This document shows positions 481-60,240 of a stretch of 64,000 nt of DNA, piece after piece. A program made the translations under genes and the position numbers. The notes beneath the pieces were generated by a model. That model ran no database searches, was not told where the DNA came from, and worked only from the letters and a program-made list of their open reading frames with translations. The stretch is from contig JAGOBM010000002.1 of the NCBI GenBank assembly GCA_017983435.1, positions 33,414-97,413 of the forward strand. The letters run 5' to 3'. Source of the stretch: Candidatus Moraniibacteriota bacterium. GTDB taxonomy: Bacteria; Patescibacteriota; Minisyncoccia; Moranbacterales; UBA1568. Numbering within the stretch: position 1 is the first letter of the stretch; every line of letters begins with the position of its first letter.

Positions 481-642
481 TGGTTTTTGAGTGGGTGCTT
501 CCCCGGGAAACGAAAGCAGATTTTTTCCTCGCTGTACGCTCGGAAGCGTAGTGCATCAGAAAAAACCTCTTTCGCTTCCCGGTGAGCGCAGGCAAATCTG
601 TTTCGCATCTGGGGAACATTATTCGAGGTGAGAGCATAATTA

Positions 643-1011: not shown

Positions 1012-1492
1012 AATAGGATAGGCAATCGAGGGCGATAGTTGGGTCGGGCACGCGGTGTCTTTCAGTGATGAAGGAATCCGAGTGCCCGATCGAAGGAATC
1101 AAGACGATTCTGTCGTGCAGAGAGGGTACGCCGTTCTATCTCACGAGGAGATTGACATGAAACATCCGGCTTTTGCTTGCCCCCGCGCCAGTCCTTGCGC
1201 TTCCGACCAAAGTTGGGCCCAGATCGGCGATACCGTCGCCTGTACCGGTCCGCCTGCTAGTTTCCAGCAGAAAAACGGCGCCGACGTCGGTCCCGGTATC
1301 TGATCGCAAGGACGATCTCGTATCCGGACGCTCTCAACTCGCAGCACCCCTCCCTCGCCGCCTTCACTGAAGGCTCGCGATGGAGGGTTTTTCTTTGCTC
1401 GTATCTGGATTCCAGGAGTGGCGCGTTGTGATATACTGGAGAAAAGATCACATGTCCAAAAAACAGGACGAACAATAAAAATAAAGATTTAT

Positions 1493-4929: not shown

Positions 4930-5038
4930 AGAATATGGAATAGAGTATAGAGAATAAAGGTTTCTGAAACAATAACCCTCCATTGCGGAGGATTATTGTT
5001 TTTCTTTTCTGTATTCCTTATTCTACATTCTCTATTCT
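4930..5038. repeat. GAATA-rich inverted-repeat element (arms 4930-4956 and 5012-5038) flanking a CCTCC-ATTGC-GGAGG hairpin
   Basis: The arms AGAATATGGAATAGAGTATAGAGAATA and TATTCCTTATTCTACATTCTCTATTCT belong to the same family as elements at eight other loci listed in the findings. It is intercistronic between fdx and sufT. Confidence 0.6.
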
Positions 5039-5315: not shown

Positions 5316-5684
5316 CTATTCTTGTTTACTGTTTACTGCTTTGCTGAATGTTTCCAGGGAGAGGAGGGCACACTTCAAGCGATTCGGAGAGAGCGAGACT
5401 CCTAGTAGAGCGAGGAGACCGTCTGTGTCGAAAGTGCTGGCTTCCGCAATCGTCTTTCCTTTCACGAATTCGGAGAGGAGCGACGCGCTCGCCTGTGAAA
5501 TAGCGCATCCTGAACCGGAAAACTTCACATCGGCAATAATACCATTTTTCACGGAAAGCTGCATCTCAAGCCGATCACCGCAGGTCGGATTGTTGGCCGC
5601 AGCCCGGTGCGTCGGCGCCTTCAGCACGCCCTGATTGCGAGGGTTGCGATAGTGGTCGAGGATGAGGTCTTGGTACAGGCTCAT
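5316..5684 (-). CDS. sufU: SUF FeS cluster scaffold/sulfur-transfer protein SufU (NifU/IscU-like)
   Basis: NPTCGDRLEM...FSGSGCAISQAS...RLKCALL shows the three conserved Cys of SufU/IscU. Confidence 0.8.
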   Translation of the reverse strand: MSLYQDLILDHYRNPRNQGVLKAPTHRAAANNPTCGDRLEMQLSVKNGIIADVKFSGSGCAISQASASLLSEFVKGKTIAEASTFDTDGLLALLGVSLSPNRLKCALLSLETFSKAVNSKQE

Positions 5685-5690
5685 ACAGAT

Positions 5691-6944
5691 TTATGCTAAG
5701 AGGGTGAGTGCTTTTTTGGCAGCTTCGATGAATCGATCGATATCTCCTTCCGTCGTGTATATCCCGAAACTGATACGGGCCGTGGACGTGATATCGAGTC
5801 TGCGGTGGAGCGGACTGGCGCAGTGTTCGCCGGCGCGGATACAGATAGACTGTTCACCGAGCAGATGCGCGAGGTCGTGTGGGTGGATGCCCTTGAGAGC
5901 AAAGGCGATAAGTCCGCTCCGTCGCTCAGGCGATGATGGTCCCAGGATGCGGATGGCATCCCCGAAAGTCTCGGTCAGGCGCGTGAGAGCCGAGCGGATG
6001 AGCGATGCTTCATGAGCACGGATGGCTTCCACCCCGATCGTTTCGAGGAAGTCGAGGGCGGCACCCCAGCCGATGACGCCGGAGATATTCGGCGTGCCAG
6101 CTTCAAAGCGGTAGGGAATGTCTTTGTACTTCCTGGGAGCAGAACAAGCCCGCCCGTTTTCTGATGGCGGACAAGCATCCAATACCATACCGCCGCCGAA
6201 AGTCAGGGGGGGCAGAGTCTCGAGGAGTGAGGCTCGGCCATAGAGAATACCGACGCCGGTCGGGCCATACAGTTTGTGCGCCGAGAAGGCGACAAAATCC
6301 GCGTTCCACTCGGCGACATCGATGGGGATATGGAGAGCGGCTTGGGCGGCATCGATCACGGTGAGGGTGTCTCTGTTTTTTGCTCGAACCGCCTGGATGA
6401 TATCCGTCACGGGATTGATCCCGCCGAAGACATTGGAAACAGCGGAGAAAGCGACCAGCACCGTCCGAGCATCCACGAGTGTAGCCATAGCGACTGGTTC
6501 GATGAGACCATCGGCATCAAACGGGACGATACGAAGCTCGATGTCCTTGGCTTCCGCGAGCTCGACCCAGGGGAGAAAGTTGGCATGGTGCTCAGCGTCG
6601 GTGATGACGATATTGTCTCCTGCTCGGAGTCGGGGGGCGATCCAGGTGGCGACCATATTGAGAGCCTGAGTCGTGTTTTGGGTGAAGATGATTTCTCTCG
6701 GGGTGGCTCCGATGAAACGAGCTGTCCGCTCCCGGACTGCTTCGAACGCTTCGGTGGCTTGCTCGGCGATCGGATAGAGGCCGCGGCCGATATTGGCCGA
6801 ATATTCCTCTTCATAGGCCCGTTCGGCCGTGATGACGCAGTCCGGTTTCAGGCTGGTCGCTGCCGAATCGAGGTATGCGAGCTCGGGGTGATGGGAGAAT
6901 ATCGGGAAATATTCCCGGATATCCGCTGGGAGAACACGGTTCAT
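5691..6944 (-). CDS. sufS: Cysteine desulfurase SufS (PLP-dependent class V aminotransferase)
   Basis: SAHKLYGPTGVGILYG contains the PLP-Lys motif, and RAGEHCASPL contains the active-site Cys. It overlaps sufD by ATGA. Confidence 0.9.
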   Translation of the reverse strand: MNRVLPADIREYFPIFSHHPELAYLDSAATSLKPDCVITAERAYEEEYSANIGRGLYPIAEQATEAFEAVRERTARFIGATPREIIFTQNTTQALNMVATWIAPRLRAGDNIVITDAEHHANFLPWVELAEAKDIELRIVPFDADGLIEPVAMATLVDARTVLVAFSAVSNVFGGINPVTDIIQAVRAKNRDTLTVIDAAQAALHIPIDVAEWNADFVAFSAHKLYGPTGVGILYGRASLLETLPPLTFGGGMVLDACPPSENGRACSAPRKYKDIPYRFEAGTPNISGVIGWGAALDFLETIGVEAIRAHEASLIRSALTRLTETFGDAIRILGPSSPERRSGLIAFALKGIHPHDLAHLLGEQSICIRAGEHCASPLHRRLDITSTARISFGIYTTEGDIDRFIEAAKKALTLLA

Positions 6945-9070: not shown

Positions 9071-9784
9071 TCATATATGGGAGAAGCCTTTCTTCTCGAT
9101 AGCAGCCGCCAATGCTGGACCGCCGGTAGCGACCAGGCAGCCATCTTTGATAACGAGTATTTCATCCGGGCGCATGTATTTGAGCAGCTTGGCCGAGTGA
9201 GTGATGAAGACGAGTGTCGCTTCTTTGGAGAGTGTTTTGCGCAGGAAACCGGTGATAGTCTTCAGGGCATCGACATCGACACCAGTGTCAATCTCATCGA
9301 AGAGGACGAACCGTGGCTCAAGCAGGGCGATCTGGAGCGCCTCGAGCTTCTTCTTTTCTCCTCCGGAAAATCCGTCATTGAGCGAACGTGATAAGAGCTC
9401 GGATTTTATCTTGAGCGCTTCGGCGCCTTCACGGATCTTGGCGTGCAGGGCGAATGGGTCATAGCGTTTCTCGAGCGCGAGCCGGAGGAGGTCCCGGACA
9501 GAGACTCCTTCGAGCGCAAGCGGATTCTGAAACGTCATGCTGATACCGAGCGCTGCCCGCTTGTCCGGCGAGAGCGAACGGAGATTCTTCTGGCCGACGA
9601 GGATCTTGCTCCCGCGGGCGAGCTTGAAGTCCGGGTGGCCCATGATGACGCTCGCGAGCGTCGATTTGCCTGAGCCGTTAGGTCCGAGTATAGCGTAGGT
9701 TTTGCCTGACTTGAAAGCGAAGGAAATGTCGTGGAGTATCTTCTTGCCTTCGATAGATGCGGAGAGGTGTTCGATGGAGAGCAT
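9071..9784 (-). CDS. sufC: FeS assembly ATPase SufC
   Basis: MLSIEHLSASIEGKKILHDISFAFKSGKTYAILGPNGSGKSTL carries Walker A, and LSGGEKKK... carries the ABC signature. The start was set at the internal Met that matches the SufC N-terminus. Confidence 0.9.
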   Translation of the reverse strand: MLSIEHLSASIEGKKILHDISFAFKSGKTYAILGPNGSGKSTLASVIMGHPDFKLARGSKILVGQKNLRSLSPDKRAALGISMTFQNPLALEGVSVRDLLRLALEKRYDPFALHAKIREGAEALKIKSELLSRSLNDGFSGGEKKKLEALQIALLEPRFVLFDEIDTGVDVDALKTITGFLRKTLSKEATLVFITHSAKLLKYMRPDEILVIKDGCLVATGGPALAAAIEKKGFSHI

Positions 9785-9792
9785 AGGGTTGA

Positions 9793-10203
9793 TTACGAAT
9801 GAAGCGTATTGGTAGTTATCTGGTCGAGGGTCATAGCGGACAATGTCATCTCTATTTTCTGTTCGAGCTCTCGCCATACCTGGTTTGTCTGGCAGTGAGT
9901 GAGTTTCGGGTAGGGAGACGCATGGGTGAGTCGGGGCGGGGCGAAGCTCTTCCAGCCACCATCGAGTGTCGAGACGATATCCCAGACGGAGATGGCAGCG
10001 AGCGGTCGGGCTAGGGTGTAGCCGCCATGAGCGCCCTTCTCGGATGAGACGAGGCCCTCGCGCTTGAGGATCTGGAGTATCTTGTGGAGGTATTCCTCGG
10101 GCATATTCTCAGCCAGAGCCATGTCGTGTACGGAAAGCTCGCCCTCGGTCGCGAGTGCGGTGATGGCCCGGAGGCCGTAGTAGGCTTTCTTAGATATGCG
10201 CAT
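9793..10203 (-). CDS. Rrf2-family transcriptional regulator (IscR/SufR-like), first gene of the suf operon
   Basis: MRISKKAYYGLRAITALA...ALAENMPEEYLHKILQILKREGLV is an Rrf2 wHTH. Cys residues lie in the C-terminal half. Confidence 0.8.
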   Translation of the reverse strand: MRISKKAYYGLRAITALATEGELSVHDMALAENMPEEYLHKILQILKREGLVSSEKGAHGGYTLARPLAAISVWDIVSTLDGGWKSFAPPRLTHASPYPKLTHCQTNQVWRELEQKIEMTLSAMTLDQITTNTLHS

Positions 10204-11946: not shown

Positions 11947-13143
11947 CTATTTGTAGCGGAGCGCTTCGAGAGCGTCGATACTGGAAGCTTTGCGGGCCGG
12001 GAAGACACCGGTCGAGAAACCGACGACGGCTCCGAAAAGAATGACGGTGGTGATGAACCAGAGCGGGCTGTAGAAGAGGTCAACAGACTCGCCGCCGAAT
12101 CGCTGAGCGATCAGATTGATCATGAGATTGAGTACTTCTCCTTCGAGCATACCGAGCACGACGCCGCCGAGCGCTCCGAGGAGTCCCATGAGCGTCGATT
12201 CAGTGAGAAACATGAGCGCGATGCTCCGCTTGGCGGCACCGATAGATTTCATGATGCCGATTTCTTCAGTACGCTCGAGCAGGGCGATGGTCATAGTGTT
12301 AAACATACCGATAGCCGAGACAATAAGGGCGATCAAGCCAAAGACCATGAGGACGATCTGAACCGCCCGGAAAACTTTGTTCGCCTGGTCGACGGTTTCG
12401 GAAATGGATGAGGCGATGAATCCCTTGCCTTCGATTTCTGCCCGGACGCTGTTGATAGTGTCGGTCGAGCTGCATTTCACTTTGAGCTTGGTATAGGACG
12501 CGAGCGGGAACTCGCCAAGCGAATCGAGCGAGAGGTAGACGAGGTTCTCCTCTCCTTCGACGACGCCGACGATGGTGTAGGTGTCGGGTAGTGCAAACGT
12601 ACTGCTCTTCTGAGATTTCCCGGAGGCATCGCTCTGAAATAGGGTGAGGGAGACGGTCTGGCCGAGCATATCTTCGGGGGCGGAATCGAAAACTTGAGCG
12701 ACCGCTTTGGTGATGACGATGGAACTCTTCTCATCTTTGGTGAAGAGCCGTCCGACATTGATCTTGAGGCCTTCGTTGCGGAGCAGGCCGGCGGTCGAGC
12801 TGACGGTGTTGATATCAAGCGTCACATTGCCGAATTTTCCTTGACCAGGGAGCTCAAGTACCGGAATGACATCGACGACGTTGGGGAGTGTGCGCATGGT
12901 CTCGATGGCGGCACTATCCAGGATAGTGGTGCCTTCGGCGCCTGAGGCGGTGACATCGAGGCTGACCAGGGAGTCCGAAGTTGTGATCTTCTGAAGCAGA
13001 GTGCGCTGGAGGCCGTAACCGAATGAGACGAGGAAGATGATAGCGGCGATACCGACGCTCATACCGAGAATGGTCAGGAAGGTTCGCATGGTGCGAGCCT
13101 TGAACATACGGAGCGACAGCCTGATGAGATCGAAAAGACGCAT
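11947..13143 (-). CDS. ABC transporter permease, FtsX/MacB-like (4 TM plus a large periplasmic domain)
   Basis: It has an N-terminal TM segment, a roughly 220-aa extracytoplasmic domain and a C-terminal FtsX domain (GIMKSIGAAKRSIALMFLTE). Confidence 0.85.
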   Translation of the reverse strand: MRLFDLIRLSLRMFKARTMRTFLTILGMSVGIAAIIFLVSFGYGLQRTLLQKITTSDSLVSLDVTASGAEGTTILDSAAIETMRTLPNVVDVIPVLELPGQGKFGNVTLDINTVSSTAGLLRNEGLKINVGRLFTKDEKSSIVITKAVAQVFDSAPEDMLGQTVSLTLFQSDASGKSQKSSTFALPDTYTIVGVVEGEENLVYLSLDSLGEFPLASYTKLKVKCSSTDTINSVRAEIEGKGFIASSISETVDQANKVFRAVQIVLMVFGLIALIVSAIGMFNTMTIALLERTEEIGIMKSIGAAKRSIALMFLTESTLMGLLGALGGVVLGMLEGEVLNLMINLIAQRFGGESVDLFYSPLWFITTVILFGAVVGFSTGVFPARKASSIDALEALRYK

Positions 13144-13147
13144 AAGT

Positions 13148-14455
13148 TTAGCTGAATTTGAGGAGCATGATTACTTCTACTTCGCGGGCGACCTTCTCGA
13201 CGGTGTTCTTGTGGAGACCGACACCATCTTGAGCGACCGGTGCATCGATGCGCTTGCGGAGTTCGATCTGACCAATGGTGCTTTCGAGACGCATCTTGAG
13301 GACGGTCTGGAGGCGGAGCAGTTTCTGCTGGTCGAGCTTGAGATGGAAATGCGTGATGAGGTACTCGGCCAGGAGTGTCGCGCTTTTGGCTGGGTCGTCT
13401 TTGAGCTTTTGGGCGATGGCAAGGATTTCCTGCACCCGGCCAGAGAAGGATTCGGCCCGGAGCCGGTTCCAGCCAGCGCCACCTTTCTCGAGGTCGAGGT
13501 CGAGCCGATCGGTAAAGGTCGGATTGTCGATATTCTTGAAGAGGAGCTCTTTGAGGAAAGCTTCCGCCATGCTGATCTGCTCTTCGTTGAGCTCGGAGAG
13601 GAGATGGGCGAGGAGCTGCTTGGCTTTGAATGGAACGAGCAAGACGTCAACCTGCTGCGGGAGAAGGCTGCGGAAGGAGGCCATGAGCATCTTGAGTTCC
13701 TTGTTCTCCTCGGGTTCTGGCTCGTCATCATCGCGCTTATGATGGACGATTGCCCGCTTTTCCCTATGGACTTCTTCTTTGATGATTCGACCGTCTTTCA
13801 TATGGAGCACACGGTCGGCGTACTGGAGGTGCTCCGGGTTGTGGGTCACCATGACGACCGTCTTCTGATCGACTTCGTTGAGTTCCTTCAGGATCTTGAG
13901 TACGTTCTCGGCGCTTTCGCTGTCGAGGTTACCGACCGGCTCATCAGCCAGGATGATGTCGGGATTGTTGACGAGTGAGCGGGCGATGGCGACGCGCTGC
14001 TTCTGTCCGCCGGAGAGTTGGCTTGGGAATTTGTCCGCCTGCTCGGCGATGCCGAAACGGCGGAGCAGCTGATAGCCGGCCTCGAGACGCTCCTTCGGAG
14101 GCTCACCGCGGAATACTTTCGGAAGGATGACGTTGTCGATGATATTGAGCGAGGGGATGAGGTAGAAAGCTTGGAAAATCATGCCGATGAAGGTCTGGTG
14201 CAGCTCCAGGTCTTCCTTTTCGGTCATCTGCGCGATGACCTTGTTCTTGACGGAGACACTGCCATACGTGGCAGACTGCAATCCGGAGAGTGAGTAGAGG
14301 AGGGTTGATTTGCCGCAGCCGGACGGCCCGAAAATGATCACATATTCGTGAGGATAGATAGACACGCTCGTCTCTTCGAGCGCGCGCATCTCGTTGGATT
14401 TTCCCTGGTTGTAGATAATCCGCAGCTTATCGACAACGATGATCGGCTCACTCAT
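13148..14455 (-). CDS. ABC transporter ATP-binding protein (MacB-type NBD) with a roughly 200-aa helical C-terminal extension of unknown function
   Basis: Walker A ([10 protein letters not shown]), the signature ([13 protein letters not shown]) and Walker B ([11 protein letters not shown]) are present. Residues about 235-435 are an acidic then helical extension with no recognised domain. Confidence 0.85.
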
Positions 14456-18286: not shown

Positions 18287-18676
18287 TAGTGGAGTTGATG
18301 GGAATTGCACCCATGTCCAGTCACGTTTTTCCAAAATATTCTACAAGCGTAGTCTGCTTTAGGTCCCTTCCTCTCTATGAAACAGACGAAAGAGAGCGGA
18401 AGACTGGTCTTCTGCAAAAGGCGATCGGAGGAGAAAGACGAGAAGAAAATCTCCGGACCTTCCCGAAGTATGACACCGGCGGTTCTCTATCGGGAGTCGA
18501 GGAGCCGATGGTCCGCGCGAATTAGGCGCGGGCGAAAGCGAAAGACGGAGCGAACGCCGAAGCGAACGTGGCCTTGGCCTTTGGGATGAAGTTTGCACTT
18601 ATCGGTTGATGGAAGTTTTTACGATCGTACCATCATGATCGGCTTGCCTATTTTGAAAGTACGCCCTGTCGAGTCT
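18287..18676 (-). ncRNA. ssrA: tmRNA (transfer-messenger RNA, SsrA)
   Basis: The minus-strand 5-prime end GGGGUUGUUUAGACUCGACAGGG and 3-prime end GGACAUGGGUGCAAUUCCCAUCAACUCCA(CUA) closely parallel E. coli GGGGCUGAUUCUGGAUUCGACGGG...GGACGCGGGUUCAACUCCCGCCAGCUCCACCA. The acceptor stem GGGGUUG/CAACUCC keeps the G3:U wobble. A resume-codon context UAAGU-GCA-AAC and an Ala-rich tag frame ending in UAA lie on plus 18522-18596. The gene is directly downstream of smpB. Confidence 0.8.
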
Positions 18677-18772
18677 AAACAACCCCATACCATCAAGGAT
18701 GATGGAAATTCCAAATTCCAAAGCCCAAATTCCCAGCGGAATTGTAGAGTTTGGATCTTAGAATCTGAAGAA

Positions 18773-19222
18773 CTACCGGTGATCCCTCATCGCTCGCTCG
18801 ATACGCCGCTTCGCTTCCCGTTCACCGATATCGGAACGCTTGTCATACTCCTTTTTTCCCTTTGCTAGAGCGAATTCGAGCTTCACAAGTTGTTTCTGAG
18901 TATACAATCGAATAGGGACCAATGTCAAGCCTTGGACGCGGGATTTTCCAATCAGGGAGCGGATTTCCGAGCGATGGAGGAGGAGCTTGCGCGAACGGGT
19001 ATCCTCATGCTTCGTGTCTTTGTGAGCGTGAGCGTAGCGCGGAATCAGGGCATTGGTCAGGAAGAGCTCATTGCCACGGGCCGTCACAAAGGCTCCTTTG
19101 AGGCTGACGTGGCCGGTTTTGACTGACTTCACCTCGCTGCCGGACAGGACGATGCCCGCCACATACCGATCGAGGAGGGCGTAATCATAGGAAGCTCTGC
19201 GATTGAAAGCGAGATCCTTCAT
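18773..19222 (-). CDS. smpB: SsrA-binding protein SmpB
   Basis: NRRASYDYALLDRYVAGIVLSGSEVKS...GLTLVPIRLY match the SmpB consensus. Confidence 0.9.
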   Translation of the reverse strand: MKDLAFNRRASYDYALLDRYVAGIVLSGSEVKSVKTGHVSLKGAFVTARGNELFLTNALIPRYAHAHKDTKHEDTRSRKLLLHRSEIRSLIGKSRVQGLTLVPIRLYTQKQLVKLEFALAKGKKEYDKRSDIGEREAKRRIERAMRDHR

Positions 19223-21682: not shown

Positions 21683-23359
21683 TTGGAAGAGACTTCCCTA
21701 TTCGAAGTTTCACTGCCGGGTATGAAAACAACTCTAGCGCAAGCGATACAGGGAGCGATCGAGGGATTGATCCGGACGGGTCAGCTGCCTCTATTCGATC
21801 TGCCTTGCATCCAGGTGGAGCGTCCGAAGGATGAACAGTTCGGCGAATATACGTCGAATATCGCTTTGATCGCAGCCAAAATAGTCGGCAAGAATCCGAG
21901 AGAATTGGCGGAGCTGATCAAAGAACAATTAACAATTAACAATCAACAAGAAACATTCTTCGAAAAAATCGAAGTCGCTGGTCCGGGGCATCTCAATCTC
22001 TATCTGGCGCAGTCGGTACTCGGCGGTGTCGTGGAAACTATCGCAGCGCGACAGGATCAGTACGGGGCATCAGATCAGGGAGCAGGCCAGTCCGTGAACA
22101 ACGAATTCGTCTCGGCCAATCCGACCGGCCCGCTGCATCTCGGCAATGGCCGCGGGGGATTCTTTGGCGATACGCTCTCGCACATCCTGCGCAAGGCGGG
22201 ATACGCCGTAACGAATGAATACTATGTGAACGATGCCGGCGAGCAAGTGCTGAAGCTCGGGCATAGCGTCCTCAAGGACGAGGAGGCGGTATATGGAGGA
22301 GAATATATTGAAACGCTCCATGAGCGTTTCAAACAACAAACAACAAACAACAAACAACAAGATGGGGAAGGTGTAGTGAGGGAAACAGGCGAGTGGGCGG
22401 CGGAATATATTCTCACACATTTCATCCAGCCGACGCTCAAGGATCAGATGCGGATTACGTTCGATGTCTTCACTTCGGAAAAGCAAGAAATAATCGAGCG
22501 TGGGTATGTCGAGAAAGCCCTGGAGATTTTCAAGGAGAAGCAGCTTTCGTTCGAGACGGACGGCGCACTCTGGCTCAAGACGACCGCTTTCGGCGATGAC
22601 AAAGATCGAGTGCTCGTGAAGGGCGATGGGACGAAGACATACTTCGCGTCCGATTGCGGCTATATCCTCTCCAAGATGGAGCGCGGCTTTACACGGCTTA
22701 TCCTCACGCTCGGAGCGGATCATCACGGCTATCGGGCCCGGATCGAAGCAGCAGCACAGGCGCTCGGATTTGTCGGCCGTTTCGATTTTGTCTTCGTCCA
22801 GCTGGTCCGCCTCATGAAAGACGGCCAGGAAGTGCGGATGAGCAAGCGGGCGGGCAATGTCGTCTCGATCGACGAGCTGATCGAGCGGGTCGGACCGGAT
22901 GTCGCACGCTTCTTCTTTCTCGTGTACAGCCCCGATACGCATATGAACTTTGATCTCGGACTGGCAGAAGAGCGGTCACAGAAGAACCCGGTCTACTATG
23001 TGCAGTACGCGCATGCTCGGCTGGCCAGCGTGCTAGCCAAAGCGGCGGAGGCCGGACTCGATCCGGATCGCGGCGATGTCACTCTGCTCCAGGACCCGAA
23101 GGAGCGCCTGCTCCTCGCTGAGCTCCTCTCATTCCCGGATTTGATCTTGGATACGGCCGAGGATTATGCCGTCCATCGGCTGCCTCAGTATGCTATCCGT
23201 CTGGCTGACCGGCTGCACTCTTTCTATGATGCCTGCCGGGTCATCGATACCGAACAGCCAGCGATGTCTGAGGCTCGCCTGAGGCTCGTGAAAAGTGCTA
23301 AAATAGTCTTGAGTGAGACACTTCGTCTCATAGGTGTTACTGCTCCGGAAAAGATGTAG
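21683..23359 (+). CDS. argS: Arginyl-tRNA synthetase
   Basis: SANPTGPLHLGNGRGG is the HIGH-region variant, and MSKRAGNVV the KMSK variant. It contains two in-frame simple-sequence stretches (INNQQ; QQTTNNKQQ). Confidence 0.9.
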   Translation: MEETSLFEVSLPGMKTTLAQAIQGAIEGLIRTGQLPLFDLPCIQVERPKDEQFGEYTSNIALIAAKIVGKNPRELAELIKEQLTINNQQETFFEKIEVAGPGHLNLYLAQSVLGGVVETIAARQDQYGASDQGAGQSVNNEFVSANPTGPLHLGNGRGGFFGDTLSHILRKAGYAVTNEYYVNDAGEQVLKLGHSVLKDEEAVYGGEYIETLHERFKQQTTNNKQQDGEGVVRETGEWAAEYILTHFIQPTLKDQMRITFDVFTSEKQEIIERGYVEKALEIFKEKQLSFETDGALWLKTTAFGDDKDRVLVKGDGTKTYFASDCGYILSKMERGFTRLILTLGADHHGYRARIEAAAQALGFVGRFDFVFVQLVRLMKDGQEVRMSKRAGNVVSIDELIERVGPDVARFFFLVYSPDTHMNFDLGLAEERSQKNPVYYVQYAHARLASVLAKAAEAGLDPDRGDVTLLQDPKERLLLAELLSFPDLILDTAEDYAVHRLPQYAIRLADRLHSFYDACRVIDTEQPAMSEARLRLVKSAKIVLSETLRLIGVTAPEKM

Positions 23360-23423
23360 TTTTTGCCCACCCCAGTCTCCGAAAGCCGATTTCTTATGTG
23401 GCTGATACCCCGCCGCATGCTCG

Positions 23424-23510
23424 TCTCACTGGTCGCGAAAGAGATTTCTCCTGATACCCGAGACTTCCGAGGCGATAGTGAGGGAAAATCTGCTTTTGTG
23501 GCCAGTGAGA
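23424..23510 (+). ncRNA. Conserved stem-loop element, copy 2 of 3
   Basis: An 18-bp outer stem, TCTCACTGGTCGCGAAAG / CTTTTGTGGCCAGTGAGA, has three positions paired only as G-U/U-G. The loop is UGAUACCCGAGACUUCCGAGGCGAUAGUGAGGGAAAA. Confidence 0.45.
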
Positions 23511-23595
23511 CACTGAGGAGAAAAAGTCTTTGCAGCCCAAGAAATGAAATGCGAAGTAATCAAGATACTTTAGTAAAACTTAAAACAAAAAAAAA

Positions 23596-23751
23596 ATGAT
23601 CAGGAGAATTCCGAAGAAGTATCGTCATAAATACGCGAAGCCGGCGTCGTTCGATACCGAGATCGTCACCTTTGCTCTCAAGGTGGTAGGTCCGGTCGCG
23701 TTGTTCTTCGTGGCGGCTATCGGACTCGATGTCTATTCGCTCATACAATAA
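23596..23751 (+). CDS. Possible small membrane protein (51 aa)
   Basis: MIRRIPKKYRHKYAKPASFDTEIVTFALKVVGPVALFFVAAIGLDVYSLIQ has a basic N-terminus and one TM helix. Its stop overlaps the start of the next gene. It is below the ORF-track size cut-off. Confidence 0.25.
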   Translation: MIRRIPKKYRHKYAKPASFDTEIVTFALKVVGPVALFFVAAIGLDVYSLIQ

Positions 23752-23752
23752 T

Positions 23753-24328
23753 ATGTCCGACACTTCTCTCGTGCTCTATCTCGTGCGTCACGGCGAAGCG
23801 GAGCACAATGTGCTCGGTGTCGGATCGTCGCTGCCGGAGATCACGGAGCGGCACCTGACAGAGCGGGGCAAGGAGCAGATCCGGGCAGCTGCCGAGCTCT
23901 TAGCGGGACAGTCGGTCGACGCTATCATCGCCTCACCGCTCGTCCGGACCCAGGAGACGGCCGCGATCATCTCTGAGAAGACGGGCGTACCGGTACAGAC
24001 CGATGATCGGCTGCACGAGACCGGACTCGGCGTGTTCAATGAGCAGTCGATCAGACGATTCTTCGGGAAATATCCGGATCCGACCATGCGTATCAGTATC
24101 CGGGAGAATGATGGTGTCGAGAGTTTCGATACGATGCGCGAGCGATTGGGGAGTTTCCTCGCGGATGTATGGAAGCACTATGCCGGCAAGACGGTCGTCG
24201 TTGTGTCGCATGGCGATCCATTGGAACAGTTGCACGGGCTGATTATCGGTGAGGGTGCGGCTGCGGCCGCTATGGGCTGGTATCCTCAAAAGGGGAGTTG
24301 CACGAGAATAATCTGGAAACCTGAATAA
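23753..24328 (+). CDS. Histidine phosphatase family protein (phosphoglycerate-mutase-like)
   Basis: LYLVRHGEAEHN is the RHG motif, and IIASPLVRTQETA...VVVSHGD follow the family pattern. Confidence 0.8.
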   Translation: MSDTSLVLYLVRHGEAEHNVLGVGSSLPEITERHLTERGKEQIRAAAELLAGQSVDAIIASPLVRTQETAAIISEKTGVPVQTDDRLHETGLGVFNEQSIRRFFGKYPDPTMRISIRENDGVESFDTMRERLGSFLADVWKHYAGKTVVVVSHGDPLEQLHGLIIGEGAAAAAMGWYPQKGSCTRIIWKPE

Positions 24329-25539: not shown

Positions 25540-25860
25540 TTTGAACAGCGATGAAGGGGCCTCCCGAGGCGGGCGGATATCACCCCAGAGCTGCGAGAAG
25601 AAGCGTTTGTTGAAACCAAAGAAGGTGTCCGCCTTCGCCACGGCTTCGGCGTGACGCAGTAGACCTCGCCGGGCAAGCCCGTAATAGCCGAAGAAGAGGG
25701 TTTAGAGCGTTAGGTGATAGAGGCTAATAGAGGTTTTCTATAAGCTAAGTCTCTAATTGCTATAAGCTAAAGCAAGGTGGTACCACGCCTGTCCGCCCTT
25801 TGGCGGATTGCAGACGTCCTTAGCACGGTTTTCGTGTTAAGGTTTTTTTGTTTTTAAAGC
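25540..25860 (+). promoter_or_regulatory. T-box leader (tRNA-sensing riboswitch) upstream of ileS
   Basis: The conserved T-box sequence AAAGCAAGGUGGUACCACG at 25770-25787 matches the consensus AANNNGGGUGGNACCGCG. It is followed by a GC hairpin CCGCC-CUUU-GGCGG and a CACGGUUUUCGUG hairpin before a U-rich run. An AUC (Ile) triplet sits in a candidate specifier context at 25567-25569. Confidence 0.5.
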
Positions 25861-25876
25861 CATATATAATATAAGT

Positions 25877-28800
25877 ATGTTCAAAAAAGTCGATCCGAAA
25901 GTCAGCTTTCCGCAGCTTGAAGAAGAGACGCTCAAATACTGGGAGGAGAACAAGATCTTCGAGCAATCGGTAGCGAACCGCGAGGGTAAGCCGAAGTATA
26001 GTTTCAATGATGGGCCGCCGTTTGCGACCGGGTTGCCGCACTATGGGCATATCGTGGCGAGTGTTATCAAAGACGCCATACCGCGGTATTGGGCGATGCG
26101 CGGGCATCAGGTAGAGCGCAAGTGGGGCTGGGACTGTCATGGTCTGCCAATCGAGAATATCGCGGAGAAGGAGCTCGGTATCAAACATAAGAAAGATATC
26201 GAGGCGATGGGCGTCGCGAAGTTCAATGAGTTCTGTCGCTCCAAGGTGCTTGAGTACGCGGCCGAGTGGGAAAAGGTCATACCGCGTATCGGACGCTGGG
26301 CTGACATGAAGAACGCCTACCGTACCATGGATAAGGAATATATGGAGAGTGTGTGGTGGGTATTCAAGGAGCTCTGGGATAAAGGACTTATTTACGAGAG
26401 CTACCGTTCGATGCATGTCTGTCCGCGCTGCGAGACGACGCTCAGTCAACAGGAGGTGAGCGAGGGATATGTCGACGTGAAGGACTTATCAGTGGTCGCG
26501 AAGTTCGAGCTGGTTGGTTCTGATGTCATTCCGGCCTCCGAGCCGGAATCTAGGGACTGGATCCCGGGTCAAGCCCGGGATGACAAGAAAACATATGTCT
26601 TGGCGTGGACGACGACGCCGTGGACGCTGCCAGGCAATGTGGCTTTGGCTGTTGGGAAGGATATTGTTTACACAAAATCAAAAGTAGCTGAAATTAATGG
26701 CAATAGTACTTTTAAGTTAGGAGAGACTTATATATTTGCAAAAAATCGAGCAAAAATTGCAGCTCATGAAATATTTGGTGGAAAGTTAGGGGAGACTCAG
26801 ATTACGACTTTTGATAAAAATGATGGAGTGTTGTGTTCTGCAGTTATTGCGAATGATGATGGCTCTGAAACTCAAATTGTATTCGATTCTGTTGATATCT
26901 TTGGTGAGAATTTGCTAGGACAATCCTACAAGCCGCTGTTCGATTACTACGCCAAGGATACGACGCTTCCGAACCACGAGAATGGCTGGAAGATCTACGC
27001 GGCGGATTTTGTGACGACCGAGGATGGCACGGGTGTGGTGCATATCGCGCCGGCATTCGGCGAGGACGACATGGAACTCGGCAAGAAAGAGAATCTGCCG
27101 TTCGTGCAGCATGTGCATCTTGATGGCACGATGAAAGCCGAAGTGACGGATTTTGCGGGCCAGCCGGTGAAACCGAAGGAGGCGCCGCAGTCGATGGATG
27201 TGGAAATCATCAAATACCTCGCGCACAAAGGACTGCTCTTCTCAAAGGAGAAATACGAGCACAGCTACCCGCACTGCTGGCGCTGCGATACGCCGCTCCT
27301 CAATTACGCGACGTCGTCGTGGTTTGTTTCTGTGACGAAGATAAAAGAAAAGATGCTTGAGCTTGCCAAAGATATCCATTGGTCGCCGGAGCATATCAAG
27401 GAAGGGCGTTTCGGAAAGTGGCTCGAGGGCGCGCGCGACTGGTCTATCAGCCGGCAGCGCTATTGGGCCTCTGTGATGCCGATCTGGAAGTGCGAGTGCG
27501 GCGAGATACAGGTTTTCGGATCGATTGCTGATTTGGAGACAGCGAGCGGACAGAAAGTGGATGACCTGCATAAGCATGTCGTCGATGAGATCTCGGTACC
27601 ATGTACGAAGTGCGGCGGGACGATGAAGCGTGTCCCGGATGTGCTCGATACTTGGTTCGATAGCGGTTCGATGCCGTATGCGCAGGAGCACTATCCATTT
27701 GCGAACGAGGAACATTTCAACAAGAGCTTCCCGGCGGATTTCATCGCGGAGGGAGTCGATCAGACGCGCGCGTGGTTCTACTATCAGCACGTCATCGGCA
27801 CGGCTATCAAGGACAGCGTTGCATTCAAAAATGTCATCGTGAACGGTATCGTGCAGGGTGAAGATGGCAAGAAGATGTCGAAGAAACTCAAGAATTATCC
27901 GGATCCGATGGAAATCGTGAACAAGCACGGGGCGGACGCGCTGCGCCTGTATCTCTTGTCCTCACCGATTGTCGCAGCCGAAAATCTCAATTTCTCCGAG
28001 CGCGACCTGACCGAGACCTCGCGCAACGTGTTTCGCATGCTGTGGAATTCATACTCGTTCTTCATGACATACGCGTCGATCGATGCATGGGAGCCGAAGC
28101 AGGATGTCGAGCCGTCGGCCAATCTGCTCGACCGCTGGATTACTTCCGAGCTCCAGCTGCTCATCAAAAATCTCGATCAGTCGATGGAAGTGTACGAGTT
28201 GAACAAAGCAGCGCGCCTCTTCATGCCGTTTATCGACAATCTCTCGAACTGGTATATTCGCCGGTCGCGGGATCGCTTCTGGAAAAATGAAAATGATAAC
28301 GATAAGGAAGCTGCCTATCAGACGCTCTATGATGTGCTCGTAACGCTCTCGGAGCTCATGGCACCGTTTACACCATTCCTGTCGGAGGAAATCTATCGCA
28401 ATCTGACCGGAGAAGCATCGGTGCATCTGGCGGATTGGCCTACTAATAATGGCTCAATTGATGAATTGCTGAATGACTTGATGAAGGATGTTCGGGAAAT
28501 TGTGAGCATCGGTCTACAGAAACGAGCCGAGGCGAAGATTAAAGTAAGGCAGCCATTGAATCAAATCCGTCTCAAGTCGGATACGTACAAGAAACTTCTT
28601 GACACAGTTTCTGATCCTAAAGACAAGATGTTTCTCGAGAATATTATCTTGAGCGAGCTTAATGTGAAGGGAATTTACTTTGATGGTTCTGCAGAGGAAA
28701 ATATTGTTCTTGATATCGAGCTCACTGATGATCTCAAGCTCGAAGGCGAGATGAACGAGATCAACCGGGCTATCCAGGATGGGCGCAAGAAGGCGGGCTT

Positions 28801-28987
28801 CAATGTGGAGGACCGTATCGTGCTCGGGTATATGGGCAAAGAGAACGTTTTCCAGAAATTCGGCGATGAGATCGCCAAGAAAGTCCTCGCGACTGAGGTG
28901 AAGAATGAAGATCTCGCTGAGGCTGAGTATCGCGAAACCATCACCATTGAAGGCGAGGAATTTACATTCTCTCTCAAGCGATCATAG
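25877..28987 (+). CDS. ileS: Isoleucyl-tRNA synthetase
   Basis: It is 1036 aa with PPFATGLPHYGHI (HIGH), KMSKKLKN (KMSKS), a CP1 editing region, and a C-terminal WRCDTP...CTKCGG zinc region. Confidence 0.95.
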   Translation: MFKKVDPKVSFPQLEEETLKYWEENKIFEQSVANREGKPKYSFNDGPPFATGLPHYGHIVASVIKDAIPRYWAMRGHQVERKWGWDCHGLPIENIAEKELGIKHKKDIEAMGVAKFNEFCRSKVLEYAAEWEKVIPRIGRWADMKNAYRTMDKEYMESVWWVFKELWDKGLIYESYRSMHVCPRCETTLSQQEVSEGYVDVKDLSVVAKFELVGSDVIPASEPESRDWIPGQARDDKKTYVLAWTTTPWTLPGNVALAVGKDIVYTKSKVAEINGNSTFKLGETYIFAKNRAKIAAHEIFGGKLGETQITTFDKNDGVLCSAVIANDDGSETQIVFDSVDIFGENLLGQSYKPLFDYYAKDTTLPNHENGWKIYAADFVTTEDGTGVVHIAPAFGEDDMELGKKENLPFVQHVHLDGTMKAEVTDFAGQPVKPKEAPQSMDVEIIKYLAHKGLLFSKEKYEHSYPHCWRCDTPLLNYATSSWFVSVTKIKEKMLELAKDIHWSPEHIKEGRFGKWLEGARDWSISRQRYWASVMPIWKCECGEIQVFGSIADLETASGQKVDDLHKHVVDEISVPCTKCGGTMKRVPDVLDTWFDSGSMPYAQEHYPFANEEHFNKSFPADFIAEGVDQTRAWFYYQHVIGTAIKDSVAFKNVIVNGIVQGEDGKKMSKKLKNYPDPMEIVNKHGADALRLYLLSSPIVAAENLNFSERDLTETSRNVFRMLWNSYSFFMTYASIDAWEPKQDVEPSANLLDRWITSELQLLIKNLDQSMEVYELNKAARLFMPFIDNLSNWYIRRSRDRFWKNENDNDKEAAYQTLYDVLVTLSELMAPFTPFLSEEIYRNLTGEASVHLADWPTNNGSIDELLNDLMKDVREIVSIGLQKRAEAKIKVRQPLNQIRLKSDTYKKLLDTVSDPKDKMFLENIILSELNVKGIYFDGSAEENIVLDIELTDDLKLEGEMNEINRAIQDGRKKAGFNVEDRIVLGYMGKENVFQKFGDEIAKKVLATEVKNEDLAEAEYRETITIEGEEFTFSLKRS

Positions 28988-29042: not shown

Positions 29043-29765
29043 ATGGAACTCCGCTATACCGCTATCGTGCTCAAGAAGAAAGAGGTCGGTGAAACCGATC
29101 GCTTGTATACGCTGTACACCGAAGAGCAGGGCAAGGTGCGGGTGGTCGCCAAGGGTGTGCGCAAGCCGGAAGCCAAGCTGGCGAGCCAGCTCGAGACGCT
29201 CACCTACGGCCTCGTCATCGTCGTGAAGGGCCGGGGCATGGGCAAGATCGCTGGCGCAGTGGCGGAAGATTTCTTCCCGCAGCTGCGGAATGATTTCGAT
29301 ATCCTGAAACGTATCCTGGAATCCATCAGTGTCTTCGAACGGCTTGTCGATCTGGATGAACCGGATAGTCGGCTCTTTGGATTGCTCAAGACCTATCTCA
29401 GTCTGGCAGAAGCCCTGGTGCGCGATGGCCAGTCGGAAAAAGTCTTCCTGCTTTCCGAAGGATTCCTGTTCCAGTTGTTCGCGCATCTCGGCTATGAAGT
29501 CGAGACAGGCGCTTGCGTCGTGTCTGGAGAGAAGCTCCGCCAGGGCGACCGGCATTTCTTCAGTCCGGGCCAGGGGGGCATGCTATCGGGCGAGCACAGC
29601 GCGCAATCCCGAGGAGCCTTCGCGGTCAGTGAGAATACGATCAAGCTCATCCGGCTTTTCCTTTCCAATCGGTTGGAGCACCTGCCGCGCATCACGGCTG
29701 AGGCCCGGGAGCTGCGTGAACTCCGCCAGGTAGCTGCGAGCTTCCTCCAGTGGATTGTTCGCTAG
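29043..29765 (+). CDS. recO: DNA repair protein RecO
   Basis: MELRYTAIVLKKKEVGETDRLYTLYTEEQGKVRVVAKGVRK matches the RecO N-terminal OB fold. Confidence 0.85.
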   Translation: MELRYTAIVLKKKEVGETDRLYTLYTEEQGKVRVVAKGVRKPEAKLASQLETLTYGLVIVVKGRGMGKIAGAVAEDFFPQLRNDFDILKRILESISVFERLVDLDEPDSRLFGLLKTYLSLAEALVRDGQSEKVFLLSEGFLFQLFAHLGYEVETGACVVSGEKLRQGDRHFFSPGQGGMLSGEHSAQSRGAFAVSENTIKLIRLFLSNRLEHLPRITAEARELRELRQVAASFLQWIVR

Positions 29766-38838: not shown

Positions 38839-40107
38839 ATGAAATACCAGAAAACAACCCTCAACAACGGACTGCGCATCATCTTGGCGCCGATGCAGGA
38901 AGCGGAAACAGTGACGGTAATGGTGATGACCGGTGTTGGCTCACGCTACGAGTCGAAGAAGGAAAACGGTATCGCGCACTTCCTCGAGCACATGATGTTT
39001 AAGGGGACGGAGAAGCGGCCGACCGCGCACGATATCTCGAAGGAACTCGACGGGATCGGAGCGGAGTACAATGCTTTCACCGGTAAGGAATATACCGGTT
39101 ACTATGCCAAGGTAGCGGCGACGCACGCCGAGACCGCGCTCGATGTGGTGAGCGATATCTTCATGAATGCCAAGCTCGAGCAGGCGGAAATCAACCGGGA
39201 GCGGGGGACTATTCTCCAGGAGCTCAACATGTATGAGGACATGCCGATGCGGCATATCAATGACCTCTGGGAGATGCATCTTTACGGGGATCATCCGCTC
39301 GGCTGGGAGATCGTCGGGACCAAGGAGAATATCGGATCTTTCAAACGGGCTGATTTCGTGAAATATCTGCGGCGCGGATACGTATCGGAAAACGTCGTGG
39401 TCGGTATCGCGGGCAACTTCGATTCGAAGAAGATGAAAAAGGAAATCGAGGCGCGCTTCGGTCATATCGGCCATGGCAAGAAGCCGGTGTCGAAGAAAGC
39501 CAATGACAAACAGTCGGCGCCCGGGCTCTTCATCCAGACCAAGAAGACCGATCAGACACATATGATACTCGGCGTGCGTGCCTATGATATGTGGAACCAG
39601 GACCGTTTCGCGCTGTCGGTGCTCGCGACGCTCCTCGGCGGCGGTATGTCGAGCCGACTCTTCATCCAGGTGCGGGAACGCCGCGGACTAGCGTACAGCG
39701 TGCATACGGGAGTCGATACCTATATCGATGCCGGTTATCTCGCGACCCAGGTCGGCGTGGAGCACAAGAATCTCGAAGAGACCATCCGGGTGATCCTCGA
39801 TGAATACAAGAAGATCGCGACTGAAAAAGTGGACAAAGAAGAGCTTGCCAAAGCGAAAGAATATATCAAAGGCAAGATCGCTATGGGCTTCGAAGGTTCG
39901 GATGATGTGATCGAGTACCTGGTGACGCAGGAGGTCTCCCGCGGGGAGGTGGTGCTGCCGAAGGAGAAGATGAAGCAGATCGACCGGGTGACCGCCGATG
40001 ATATCCTGCGGGTGGCTCAGGATATATTCGTCAACAAGAAGCTCAACCTGACCATCATCGGTCCGCATACGAATCCGAAGAAACTTGAGAAACTCTTGAC
40101 GTTCTAA
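38839..40107 (+). CDS. M16-family zinc peptidase (insulinase-like)
   Basis: HFLEHMMFKGT is the inverted HxxEH zinc motif, and ...EY... carries the second Glu ligand. Confidence 0.85.
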   Translation: MKYQKTTLNNGLRIILAPMQEAETVTVMVMTGVGSRYESKKENGIAHFLEHMMFKGTEKRPTAHDISKELDGIGAEYNAFTGKEYTGYYAKVAATHAETALDVVSDIFMNAKLEQAEINRERGTILQELNMYEDMPMRHINDLWEMHLYGDHPLGWEIVGTKENIGSFKRADFVKYLRRGYVSENVVVGIAGNFDSKKMKKEIEARFGHIGHGKKPVSKKANDKQSAPGLFIQTKKTDQTHMILGVRAYDMWNQDRFALSVLATLLGGGMSSRLFIQVRERRGLAYSVHTGVDTYIDAGYLATQVGVEHKNLEETIRVILDEYKKIATEKVDKEELAKAKEYIKGKIAMGFEGSDDVIEYLVTQEVSRGEVVLPKEKMKQIDRVTADDILRVAQDIFVNKKLNLTIIGPHTNPKKLEKLLTF

Positions 40108-40260
40108 AGCACAGATACAAAAAACACAGAATGCCAAACAAAACACAGGAGCAAAAATATCAAAACACAGATTGCTTATCAGGAGGTTTGTGTGCTGTGT
40201 TTTAAAAAATTGTGCTTTGTTTGGTTTTTGTGTTTTGATGATTGTGATTTCAGAAAAAAT

Positions 40261-50950: not shown

Positions 50951-51478
50951 ATGCCGGAAAAGGCAGCGAAAAATCTGGTAGCGATTCCGAATGAGCGCAT
51001 CGAAAAGCGGATTTTTTGGCTGCGCGGGGAAAAGGTGATGCTTGATGCCGATTTGGCAGAGTTGTATGATGTATTGACCGGAAACCTGAACAAAGCGGTC
51101 AAGCGTAATATCGATCGGTTCCCATCCGATTTTATGTTTCAGTTGAACAAGGCGGAATTTGATGGTTTGATGTTCCAAAATGGAATATCAAAAGGGCGAG
51201 GCGGGAAAAGAAAGCTGCCGTACGCTTTTACCGAGCAGGGTGTGGCGATGCTCTCGAGCGTATTGAAGAGCCAGCGGGCAGTAGCAGTGAATATCCAAAT
51301 TGTCCGGACATTCGTAGAGCTGCGGAAGATGCTCGCAACGCATGAAGGACTGAGGAAGAAGATCGAGGCGATGGAACGGAAGTATGACAAACAGTTCAAG
51401 GCGGTATTCGATGTGTTGCGGCAACTCTTGAAAGAAGAAACGGAGCCGAAACAGAAGATCGGATTTGCTATAAAACAG

Positions 51479-51481
<3 letters not shown>
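50951..51481 (+). CDS. ORF6N-domain (KilA-N-related) DNA-binding protein
   Basis: LRGEKVMLDADLAELYDV...NKAVKRNIDRFPSDFMFQLNKAEF...GKRKLPYAFTEQGVAMLSSVLKSQRAVAVNIQIVRTFVELRK is the characteristic ORF6N signature. Its stop codon lies inside a GAATA-family repeat. Confidence 0.75.
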
Positions 51482-52942
<1,461 letters not shown>

Positions 52943-54740: not shown

Positions 54741-54782
54741 GCTCTTTGCTTGATACGACGCGACATGATGCGTCTCGGGATG

Positions 54783-54866
54783 CGGAAGAGATTTTTCCTG
54801 CTGCCCGAGACTTCCGAGGCGATAGCGAGGGAAAAATCTGCTTTCGCATCCCGAGAAATGACACTA
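54783..54866 (+). ncRNA. Conserved stem-loop element, copy 3 of 3
   Basis: The outer stem is TCTCGGGATGCGGAAG / CTTTCGCATCCCGAGA. The loop is UGCUGCCCGAGACUUCCGAGGCGAUAGCGAGGGAAAA. It lies between ssb and rpsR. Confidence 0.45.
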
Positions 54867-54908: not shown

Positions 54909-55109
54909 ATGGCACTCGAAACCAAGCAGCTCAAGAAGCTCGCGCACATCGACTATAAGGATGCGTACTTTCTGCGCAAATTCCTGAACTCTCAGGGCAA
55001 GATGTATCCTCCGAAGCGGCACGGATTGTCCGCCAAGCAGCAGCGCTGTCTCGCTCAGGCGGTCAAGCGCGCCCGCTTCATGGCGCTCATCCCGTACGTC
55101 GTGAAATAA
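54909..55109 (+). CDS. rpsR: 30S ribosomal protein S18
   Basis: IDYKDAYFLRKFLNSQGKMYPPKRHGLSAKQQRCLAQAVKRARFMAL is the canonical S18. Confidence 0.9.
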   Translation: MALETKQLKKLAHIDYKDAYFLRKFLNSQGKMYPPKRHGLSAKQQRCLAQAVKRARFMALIPYVVK

Positions 55110-59790: not shown

Positions 59791-60240
59791 TTGCACAAGG
59801 TATCGAATAGAACCACCAACCGACTCACCTCGTGCGCCGTCAAAATCCCTGCGATCCGCCAGCTGGCGGATTGACTGACGTGAAAGCATTTCATTCCGTC
59901 ATCCTGACGGAAACCATGCTGAAATGCTTTCAAGCCGCGCCCTGAGGCGAGATCGGTCTGGAGGTTCTTTACGCTTGTGCTCTGGTCTAGGAAATGATTT
60001 TGCATAACTTCCGACTTCGCTGCAACGTTGCGATACCACCCCTCGCCGACCCAGCCAGAAAGCTTTTTCTGATGCCCGAGGTGCTTTAAACCGATAGTGA
60101 GGAAAAAATTTGCTGGCTGGATCGGTGAGGGTCATGATTCTATGGATTTATAGCCTCTGGTTCGGGAAACTGTCGGGAAATAGTATACAGAAAATAGTGT
60201 CGGCGCGTCTCTGGAAAAAGATTCTGCTTGGCACCAAATC

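Follow-up and report, generated by a model that had tools for sequence, protein, structure and literature searches.

A lineage-specific palindromic repeat of Candidatus Moranbacteria that pairs on one defined strand, seen from the hairpin downstream of argS

The hairpin that follows argS at positions 23424–23511 (+) of the 64-kb stretch of DNA analysed here, referred to as the window, is one copy of a dispersed repeat of about 88 nt. Five full copies are present in the window and about 20 more in close relatives. The repeat family is previously undescribed and is narrowly distributed in the Candidatus Moranbacteria group. A single strand of each copy folds as a long irregular hairpin of about 34 pairs, and it is always one particular strand of the element that is kept able to pair. 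Closely related strains differ by the gain, loss, inversion and partial deletion of copies. On balance, we lean towards the view that the hairpin after argS, copy B, belongs to a lineage-specific mobile palindromic repeat family of the REP/MITE kind whose folding is strand-specific and takes place mainly as RNA.

Copy B starts 65 nt 3' of the argS stop codon and scores 91.2 bits (E 2e-18) with the covariance model R1 of the family. Direct reading of the sequence gives an outer helix with the 5' arm TCTCACTGGTCGCGAAAG (23424–23441, +) and the 3' arm CTTTTGTGGCCAGTGAGA (23493–23510, +). As stated in the preliminary description of this DNA, all 18 arm positions pair and exactly three of the pairs are wobbles: T23433·G23501, G23435·T23499 and G23437·T23497. 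The helix extends beyond the 18 bp given there, past a bulged G and via AGAUUUCUCCU and GGGAAAAUCU into an apical module. The bulged G is G23492, directly 5' of the 3' arm, and it is conserved across the family (alignment column 73, unpaired). The 5' strand of the inner helix, AGAUUUCUCCU (23442–23452, +), pairs with 23482–23491, i.e., alignment columns 20–30 with 62–72. The conserved apical module, with pair counts taken from the alignment, occupies 23453–23481 (+). Its outer part in copy B consists of a GA/A internal loop, a 3-bp helix (U55·G80, A56-U79, C57-G78) and a 2x2 CC/UA loop, and its inner part of a tandem G·A (G60·A75, A61·G74), a further 3-bp helix (G62-C73, A63·G72, C64-G71) and the hexaloop UUCCGA.

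The pairing in copy B is not a chance match, as 0.08 arm matches with at most three mismatches are expected from shuffles of the window and none of 200 shuffles folds equally well. The 95-nt region around copy B has a folding energy of -46.3 kcal/mol with z = -6.4 (RNAfold). Folding of 201 nt gave no larger structure enclosing the hairpin. An arm match with three mismatches at 29617–29634 (-) was discarded as chance, since it lies within a coding region and has no partner arm.

The gene context agrees with the first reading of the sequence: argS is the ORF at 21683–23359 upstream (Pfam DALR_1, tRNA-synt_1d and Arg_tRNA_synt_N), and a gene for a His_Phos_1 protein lies downstream. A conserved 51-aa ORF at 23597–23752 (+), whose sequence starts MIRRIPKKYRHKY, separates copy B from the histidine phosphatase gene. 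This ORF is called in all relatives and its product is probably a small membrane protein; given its conservation, the start of the histidine phosphatase probably lies downstream of the first ATG at 23729. Homologues of the histidine phosphatase bear the name Candidatus Moranbacteria, and the oxidoreductase alpha subunit of the window shows 100% identity to a protein listed by NCBI under a Candidatus Moranbacteria MAG. Upstream of copy B, the segment GTCTCCGAAAGCCGATTTCTT...CTGATACCCC at 23371–23412 (+), picked out by eye, can tentatively be read as a degenerate 5' half-copy, and nhmmer assigns it only E = 3.3.

The stem-loop family proposed in the preliminary description is real. Its four + strand copies are joined by a fifth on the - strand at 498–586, missed at that stage and found with the covariance model. 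The three + strand copies other than B were first detected by inverted-repeat and pattern searches, which placed them at 929–1012, 54773–54856 and 60040–60131 with a shared architecture, and the core pattern has four exact matches in the window where none is expected. A degenerate core pattern matches three loci in one MAG of a species-representative genome collection, and 11 metagenome loci. Model R1, built from 15 copies, recovered all copies found by pattern as well as diverged ones, with further matches in the relative loci L004, L005, L012, L015, L016, L025 and L031. An nhmmer search of the window confirmed the five full copies and gave no significant partial ones.

Along the window, the order is xseA, the antisense copy, xseB, copy A and the pyruvate:ferredoxin oxidoreductase genes; then argS, copy B and the small ORF; then rpsF, ssb, copy C, rpsR and efp; and finally rplY, copy D and an amidase gene. 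The antisense copy (498–586, -; R1 86.3 bits) is separated from xseA by 18 nt and from xseB by 76 nt, is antisense to the operon and has an orthologue in L025. Copy A (928–1014, +; 77.3 bits) is located 66 nt after xseB, upstream of the oxidoreductase genes. Copy C (54771–54859, +; 102.3 bits) is found 31 nt after ssb within the rpsF-ssb-rpsR operon, which efp follows. Copy D (60041–60131, +; 77.3 bits) lies between rplY (L25) and the amidase gene, both assigned from Pfam; its outer stem is longer and divergent and it belongs to a subtype with a GCUUUAA loop. The genes xseB (662–862, +) and rpsR/S18 (54909–55109, +), each of 66 aa and below the cut-off of the ORF list, frame two of the elements, so that the copy at 498–586 and copy C lie inside conserved operons. 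The segment AAATCTGTTTCGCATCTGGGGAA at 588–617 (+) is the 3'-arm remnant of a further copy, which is intact in the 97% relative L025 (9035–9120); the remnant alone is not significant with nhmmer.

No copies were found in relatives below about 80% protein identity, and the literature on repeats or structured RNAs of CPR/Patescibacteria yielded nothing that describes such repeats. With Rfam 15 at the gathering threshold, the whole window contains tmRNA only and no family for the hairpin. E-value searches with the window and with two copies alone returned only noise of the miRNA-precursor hairpin type, at 12–30 bits against thresholds of 54–117. Collections of phages, plasmids and viruses contain no blastn or pattern match to the hairpin, and a phage, plasmid or viral origin was ruled out on these grounds. 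The tmRNA gene (18287–18686, -; RF00023, 110.8 bits) adjoins smpB (18773–19222, -), and the same pairing is present in syntenic relatives. A weak match to a T-box leader at 25542–25803 (+; 28 bits against a gathering score of 93, E 0.027) lies directly upstream of ileS (25877–28987) and may represent a diverged T-box of this lineage. The MAG most similar to the window in the genome collection, GCA_964580285.1 (CAZOKB01; loci L001–L003 and L016), is labelled 'uncultured Bdellovibrionales'. This label is probably wrong, as the MAG is syntenic with the window at about 80% protein identity and the proteins of the window are named Candidatus Moranbacteria.

At the level of the alignment, covariation across copies strongly backs the fold. 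In a 16-sequence MAFFT alignment, 90.9% of the cells are paired, compared with 43–54% when the partners are slid by 1–3 columns. Changes on both sides are seen in 18 pairs against 10.2 in column shuffles, a value reached by none of 500 shuffles. RNAalifold predicts the same helix independently, and the covariance analysis suggested in the preliminary description supports the long helix. Compensatory changes of this kind are evidence for a structured strand, and the same test cannot separate RNA from single-stranded DNA.

The conservation is not uniform along the hairpin. The outer 10 bp or so are nearly all different among the copies and the pairing is still kept. The middle helix, GCGAAAG/CUUUCGY with its bulged G, is conserved, and so is the U-rich/A-rich inner helix, which shows swaps from CG to UA (pairs 27-65 and 28-64 covary between the two). 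In the apical module it is the sequence itself that is conserved, with U·G closing pairs, small internal loops and the tandem G·A; the pair counts are 16 GC, 4 GU and 3 AU for pair 34-59, and 17 CG and 6 UA for pair 43-51. The tandem G·A/A·G positions become G-C/C-G in the copy L005:883 and U-A/A-U in the window copy at 498; these Watson-Crick replacements in two copies show that the bases concerned face each other. The apex can be drawn with a symmetric CC/UA loop or with a kink-turn-like CCC bulge. In the latter register, pairs 31-59, 33-57 and 34-56 are canonical in 21–23 of 23 copies, and the symmetric register fits the sequence equally well, so that the sequence does not decide for a kink-turn.

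The termini of the copies vary (TCTCACTGG, TCTCGGGAT, TCTTCAGGG, CCCTCGCCG) and a loose YCTCCNGG consensus is all they share; in the flanks there is neither a conserved motif nor a shared boundary. Just 5' of several hairpins (23400–23423, 54747–54770 and, in L005, upstream of 2361) a leader of about 22 nt (TGATAC...CATG...CG) is present that repeats the CTGATRCCC of the core. At the locus of copy C, this leader is absent in L031 and L034, where the element is flipped, and kept in L002 of the MAG, where it is flipped as well. The leader may have arisen by partial duplication, or it may offer the hairpin another sequence to pair with.

The strand that is favoured across the family is here called element-sense. 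A comparison of the two strands of copy B gives -46.3 kcal/mol for the + strand and -34.4 kcal/mol for the - strand. Among 26 copies, element-sense folds better than its complement in 24, with an average advantage of 8.9 kcal/mol. The reverse strand thus does not fold as well or better throughout the family, the outcome that the preliminary description had named as refuting its reading. In the 34 modelled pairs of 23 copies, Watson-Crick cells number 643, G·U cells 88, A·C cells 9 and all others 31. Wobbles return at the same places from copy to copy (12-80, 22-70, 30-62 and 33-60), while each A·C is a singleton. Switches from GC to AU run via G·U, as in pair 21-71 (12 GC, 7 GU, 4 AU) and in pair 34-59 with the counts given above. 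The strand asymmetry together with the excess of G·U over A·C makes a double-stranded cruciform, in which both strands pair, a poor fit.

The preliminary description had argued from the wobbles for a helix at the RNA level and against a DNA cruciform. The part of this that stands is the single strand in place of a cruciform; that the strand is RNA is not shown by wobbles alone. G·T is the best-tolerated mismatch in a single-stranded DNA hairpin too, and folding with DNA parameters prefers the same strand for four of the five copies in the window (copy B, -17.9 versus -13.2). As the asymmetry is the same under DNA parameters, the wobbles separate one strand from the duplex and not RNA from DNA. 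The further proposal that the + strand transcript is the functional form is not established, and the antisense and flipped copies contradict it if it is extended to the whole family. Copy B, moreover, has neither a promoter-like nor a terminator-like site beside it. Copies in antisense location retain the wobbles of element-sense (20 G·U versus 3 A·C), and thus read-through mRNA cannot be the sole constrained molecule. Which strand is favoured therefore depends on the element itself and not on the + strand of the window or on the mRNA.

All copies are located between annotated housekeeping genes in short intergenic spacers, usually 17–80 nt after the stop codon of the gene that reads into the element, and also inside operons. 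Of 23 copies, about 13 run in the direction of the local coding or G-rich strand and 10 run against it; this 13:10 ratio shows no bias of orientation with respect to local GC skew or replication. GC skew is positive across the whole window, so that the directions of transcription and replication are confounded here.

That the copies are insertions is shown by relatives in which the site is empty. Between argS and the small ORF, relatives at 66–72% identity have only 21 nt (L020) or 13 nt (L023) and no element, and no copy was found in 49 kb of these two. The site of copy A is empty in the 93% relative L027; the insert in the window consists of 20 nt, the hairpin and 16 nt, and these 20 and 16 nt are not common to other copies. 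This filled and empty pair, the one clean case among pairs that are otherwise too diverged, displays no evident target-site duplication or direct repeat. In L025, an additional intact copy is present where the window retains only the 3'-arm remnant, and in an 81% relative the xseA and xseB genes overlap. L005 differs from L003 by an additional block of 170 nt that includes an inverted copy. Presence/absence polymorphism at orthologous sites is thus seen at the B locus, at the A locus, in the xseA-xseB spacer and between L005 and L003.

The argS spacer of the syntenic MAG (L016) contains a full copy and a neighbouring partial copy, both inverted; the partial one is the piece that matches 23371–23412, which is inverted along with the full copy. 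In the ssb-rpsR spacer of strains with identical EF-P, the element is in + orientation in the window and L035 and in - orientation in L031 and L034, with different outer stems, and it is in - orientation in L002 of the MAG as well. Two models of how copies arise were considered. Insertion of new copies into the apical loops of old ones does not apply to copy A, where the downstream 'GGCGATAG' is ancestral flank that is present at the empty site of L027; near copy B, where half-copy-like flanking sequence had suggested it, such an insertion is a tentative reading (half-copies at nhmmer E = 3.3, not significant). Invasion of host terminator hairpins, the later outer stems, by a smaller element was rejected because the empty sites contain no prior hairpin and the outer stems have a loose consensus.

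Pfam scans of 40 ORFs of the window gave no transposase, HUH/Y1 enzyme, reverse transcriptase or integrase; they identified housekeeping genes only, plus one ORF6N-domain gene. Likewise, no RAYT (Y1 transposase) gene is present among the scanned ORFs or in the gene tables of the fetched relative loci. The ORF6N/Rha-like gene (50951–51481, +) lies between the genes for the gamma and beta subunits of ATP synthase and is followed at 51480–51544 by a 30-nt inverted repeat with TAGAATATGGA-type units. Similar AT-rich GAATAG/TATTC repeats are present at 4938–5037 and in the flank of L010, and taken together these features look like a second, unrelated repeat or mobile family.

Several other structured segments were noted in the window and its relatives. 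Upstream of the pyruvate:ferredoxin oxidoreductase genes, a hairpin at 1039–1094 (+) with 26-nt arms, TCGGGCAC...GTGCCCGA, is conserved in L025, where a small called ORF follows (9664–9810). It is found as well in L027, where copy A is missing, and is a possible conserved leader. Overlapping inverted repeats with AAAACACAG-like units cluster at 40106–40246 between genes for an M16 peptidase and an AI-2E transporter. In L027, the xseA-xseB spacer is filled at 5620–5810 by a different long palindromic element (GAGTTTTTCAGAGACTCTCC ... GGAGAGTCTCTGAAAAACT), and the same contig contains at 12984–14346 a pair resembling a diversity-generating retroelement, bAvd plus a reverse transcriptase.

Copies at fixed loci allow the substitutions to be followed in place. 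The four orthologues of copy B vary in 12 columns, every one of them paired, and the unpaired columns are unchanged. Five pairs switch between two Watson-Crick types. The intermediates are of the G·U type, apart from one A·C in the flipped L016 copy; the co-oriented orthologues have the G·U type only. Comparison of L003 with L005:734 adds four more double changes. The antisense copy at 498–586 differs from its orthologue in L025 by two substitutions, which are A·C in element-sense and G·U in the strand of the xseAB mRNA, and which cost the sense fold 11.8 kcal/mol, compared with only 3.9 for the antisense fold. This very small sample is suggestive of a filter that acts on inserted copies within whichever transcript actually runs through them. 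Conversion between copies or arms, rather than selection, could explain part of the compensatory changes seen between orthologues.

As for the molecule that folds, we give RNA an even chance. RNA is favoured because of the length and irregularity of the helix and its conserved U·G and G·A features, because the copies are located in transcribed spacers, and because the substitutions in situ fit the mRNA strand. Single-stranded DNA is less likely, though a role in propagation would fit, as the asymmetry is independent of orientation. An asymmetry that is inherited and has no present role is less likely again.

The DNA alternative can be phrased in terms of an enzyme: a single-stranded hairpin, extruded from one strand at replication with G·T tolerated, would be recognized by a single-strand transposase or nuclease (REPIN/RAYT-like or derived from IS200/IS605), and the RNA hairpin would be a by-product. 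The identical strand preference under DNA parameters agrees with this, and so do an asymmetry that travels with the element and not with the mRNA strand, and the behaviour of a mobile element that occurs in both orientations relative to genes, flips in place and accumulates beside other copies. However, neither the window nor the fetched loci were found to encode such an enzyme, the orientation is independent of local GC skew (13:10), and a conserved flanking tetranucleotide or shared boundary is lacking. The hairpins of IS608 and REP elements are much shorter and more regular than the Moranbacteria element, and the two substitutions in the copy at 498–586 wobble in the mRNA strand, not in element-sense. 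We regard this explanation as rather unlikely. Still more doubtful is that each copy is an independent small-RNA gene or cis-acting RNA module with transcription of its own, whose apex would bind a dedicated protein or be catalytic. It would account for an asymmetry unrelated to the orientation of the neighbours, for unpaired apical bases that are more conserved than the stems among orthologues, and for the covariation of the tandem G·A to Watson-Crick pairs in two copies; the kink-turn register (CCC bulge then GA) fits the sequence too, but is indistinguishable from the symmetric 2x2 loop. Against it are the lack of conserved flanks, promoter and terminator, the location of copies 17–80 nt after stop codons inside operons, and the Rfam results, which amount to sub-threshold hairpin noise. 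Nor would an essential gene be expected to turn over and flip between near-identical strains.

A stable GC-containing hairpin shortly after a stop codon could further be taken for the rho-independent terminator of argS, with the other copies likewise ending their own upstream genes. This is very improbable. A scan of 23200–23800 gave no promoter-like site and 0 terminator-like sites, and the flanks of 23 copies contain no U-tract or T-run downstream in either orientation, on which grounds the intrinsic terminator was rejected. Moreover, copies lie between genes of the conserved operons xseA-xseB and ssb-rpsR, a terminator has no need of a conserved asymmetric apex, and relatives have no hairpin at all at the same site.

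We suggest that, in the mobile repeat family that we favour, the element-sense strand would fold mainly as RNA upon read-through from the upstream gene. Copy B would then form a very stable hairpin in the 3' region of argS, where it could block 3' exonucleases or be a place of processing. A putative protein that acts on the RNA or propagates the element would bind at the conserved apical module. It can be speculated further, though we find it improbable, that the apex, with its U·G-closed helices, CC/UA loop, tandem G·A and a purine·purine pair in the terminal helix, is a new protein-binding or catalytic RNA motif and the family a mobile CPR-specific RNA regulatory repeat in place of a passive REP-like element. 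If so, dozens of copies in mRNA 3' regions and operon spacers would control RNA processing or decay; with a protein bound at the apex, this would be among the first lineage-specific RNA-protein systems described for this group. Bacteria of the Candidate Phyla Radiation have tiny genomes with very short spacers, and a hairpin repeat that recurrently colonizes these spacers is therefore a notable load. The repeat is a useful marker of strain-level dynamics. With many paralogues, orthologous sets and both orientations, the family is also a clean natural data set for separating RNA from single-stranded DNA constraint on dispersed palindromes.

Among known systems, the apex resembles kink-turn and other tandem-G·A RNA modules, since it can be written as helix, CCC bulge, G·A/A·G and helix. 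However, the same bases suit a symmetric CC/UA loop, two copies swap G·A for Watson-Crick pairs, and the likeness comes from sequence alone. With the attC sites of integrons, the element has in common that an imperfect palindrome acts as one folded strand, the choice of which is set by unpaired or mismatched bases. In contrast, attC sites have conserved outer R''/L''-L'/R' boxes, a variable centre, cassette arrays and an integrase, while the Moranbacteria element has variable ends and a conserved centre, is scattered among housekeeping genes and has no integrase in the window.

Like MITE-type repeats (Correia/NEMIS of Neisseria, ERIC/IRU of enterobacteria, RUP/BOX of pneumococcus), the element is a non-coding, hairpin-forming repeat of about 100 nt with insertion/empty-site polymorphism between strains, and it would be transcribed together with its neighbours as they are. 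MITEs, however, have conserved terminal inverted repeats and target-site duplications, while the termini are the least conserved part of the Moranbacteria element, and no related autonomous IS was seen for it. REP/REPIN sequences are hairpins of about 90 nt that are passively transcribed and can stabilise upstream mRNA, and in proteobacteria REPs are mobilised by RAYT transposases. The Moranbacteria element is like them in being a short imperfect palindrome whose numerous intergenic copies often directly follow genes, point either way and form clusters. It differs in that it has no GTAG-type flanking motif, no RAYT that could be found in the window or the fetched loci, and no sequence similarity to them. 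The architecture is also reversed: REPINs conserve the REP arms and vary the spacer, while the Moranbacteria element conserves the apex and varies the outer arms with compensation.
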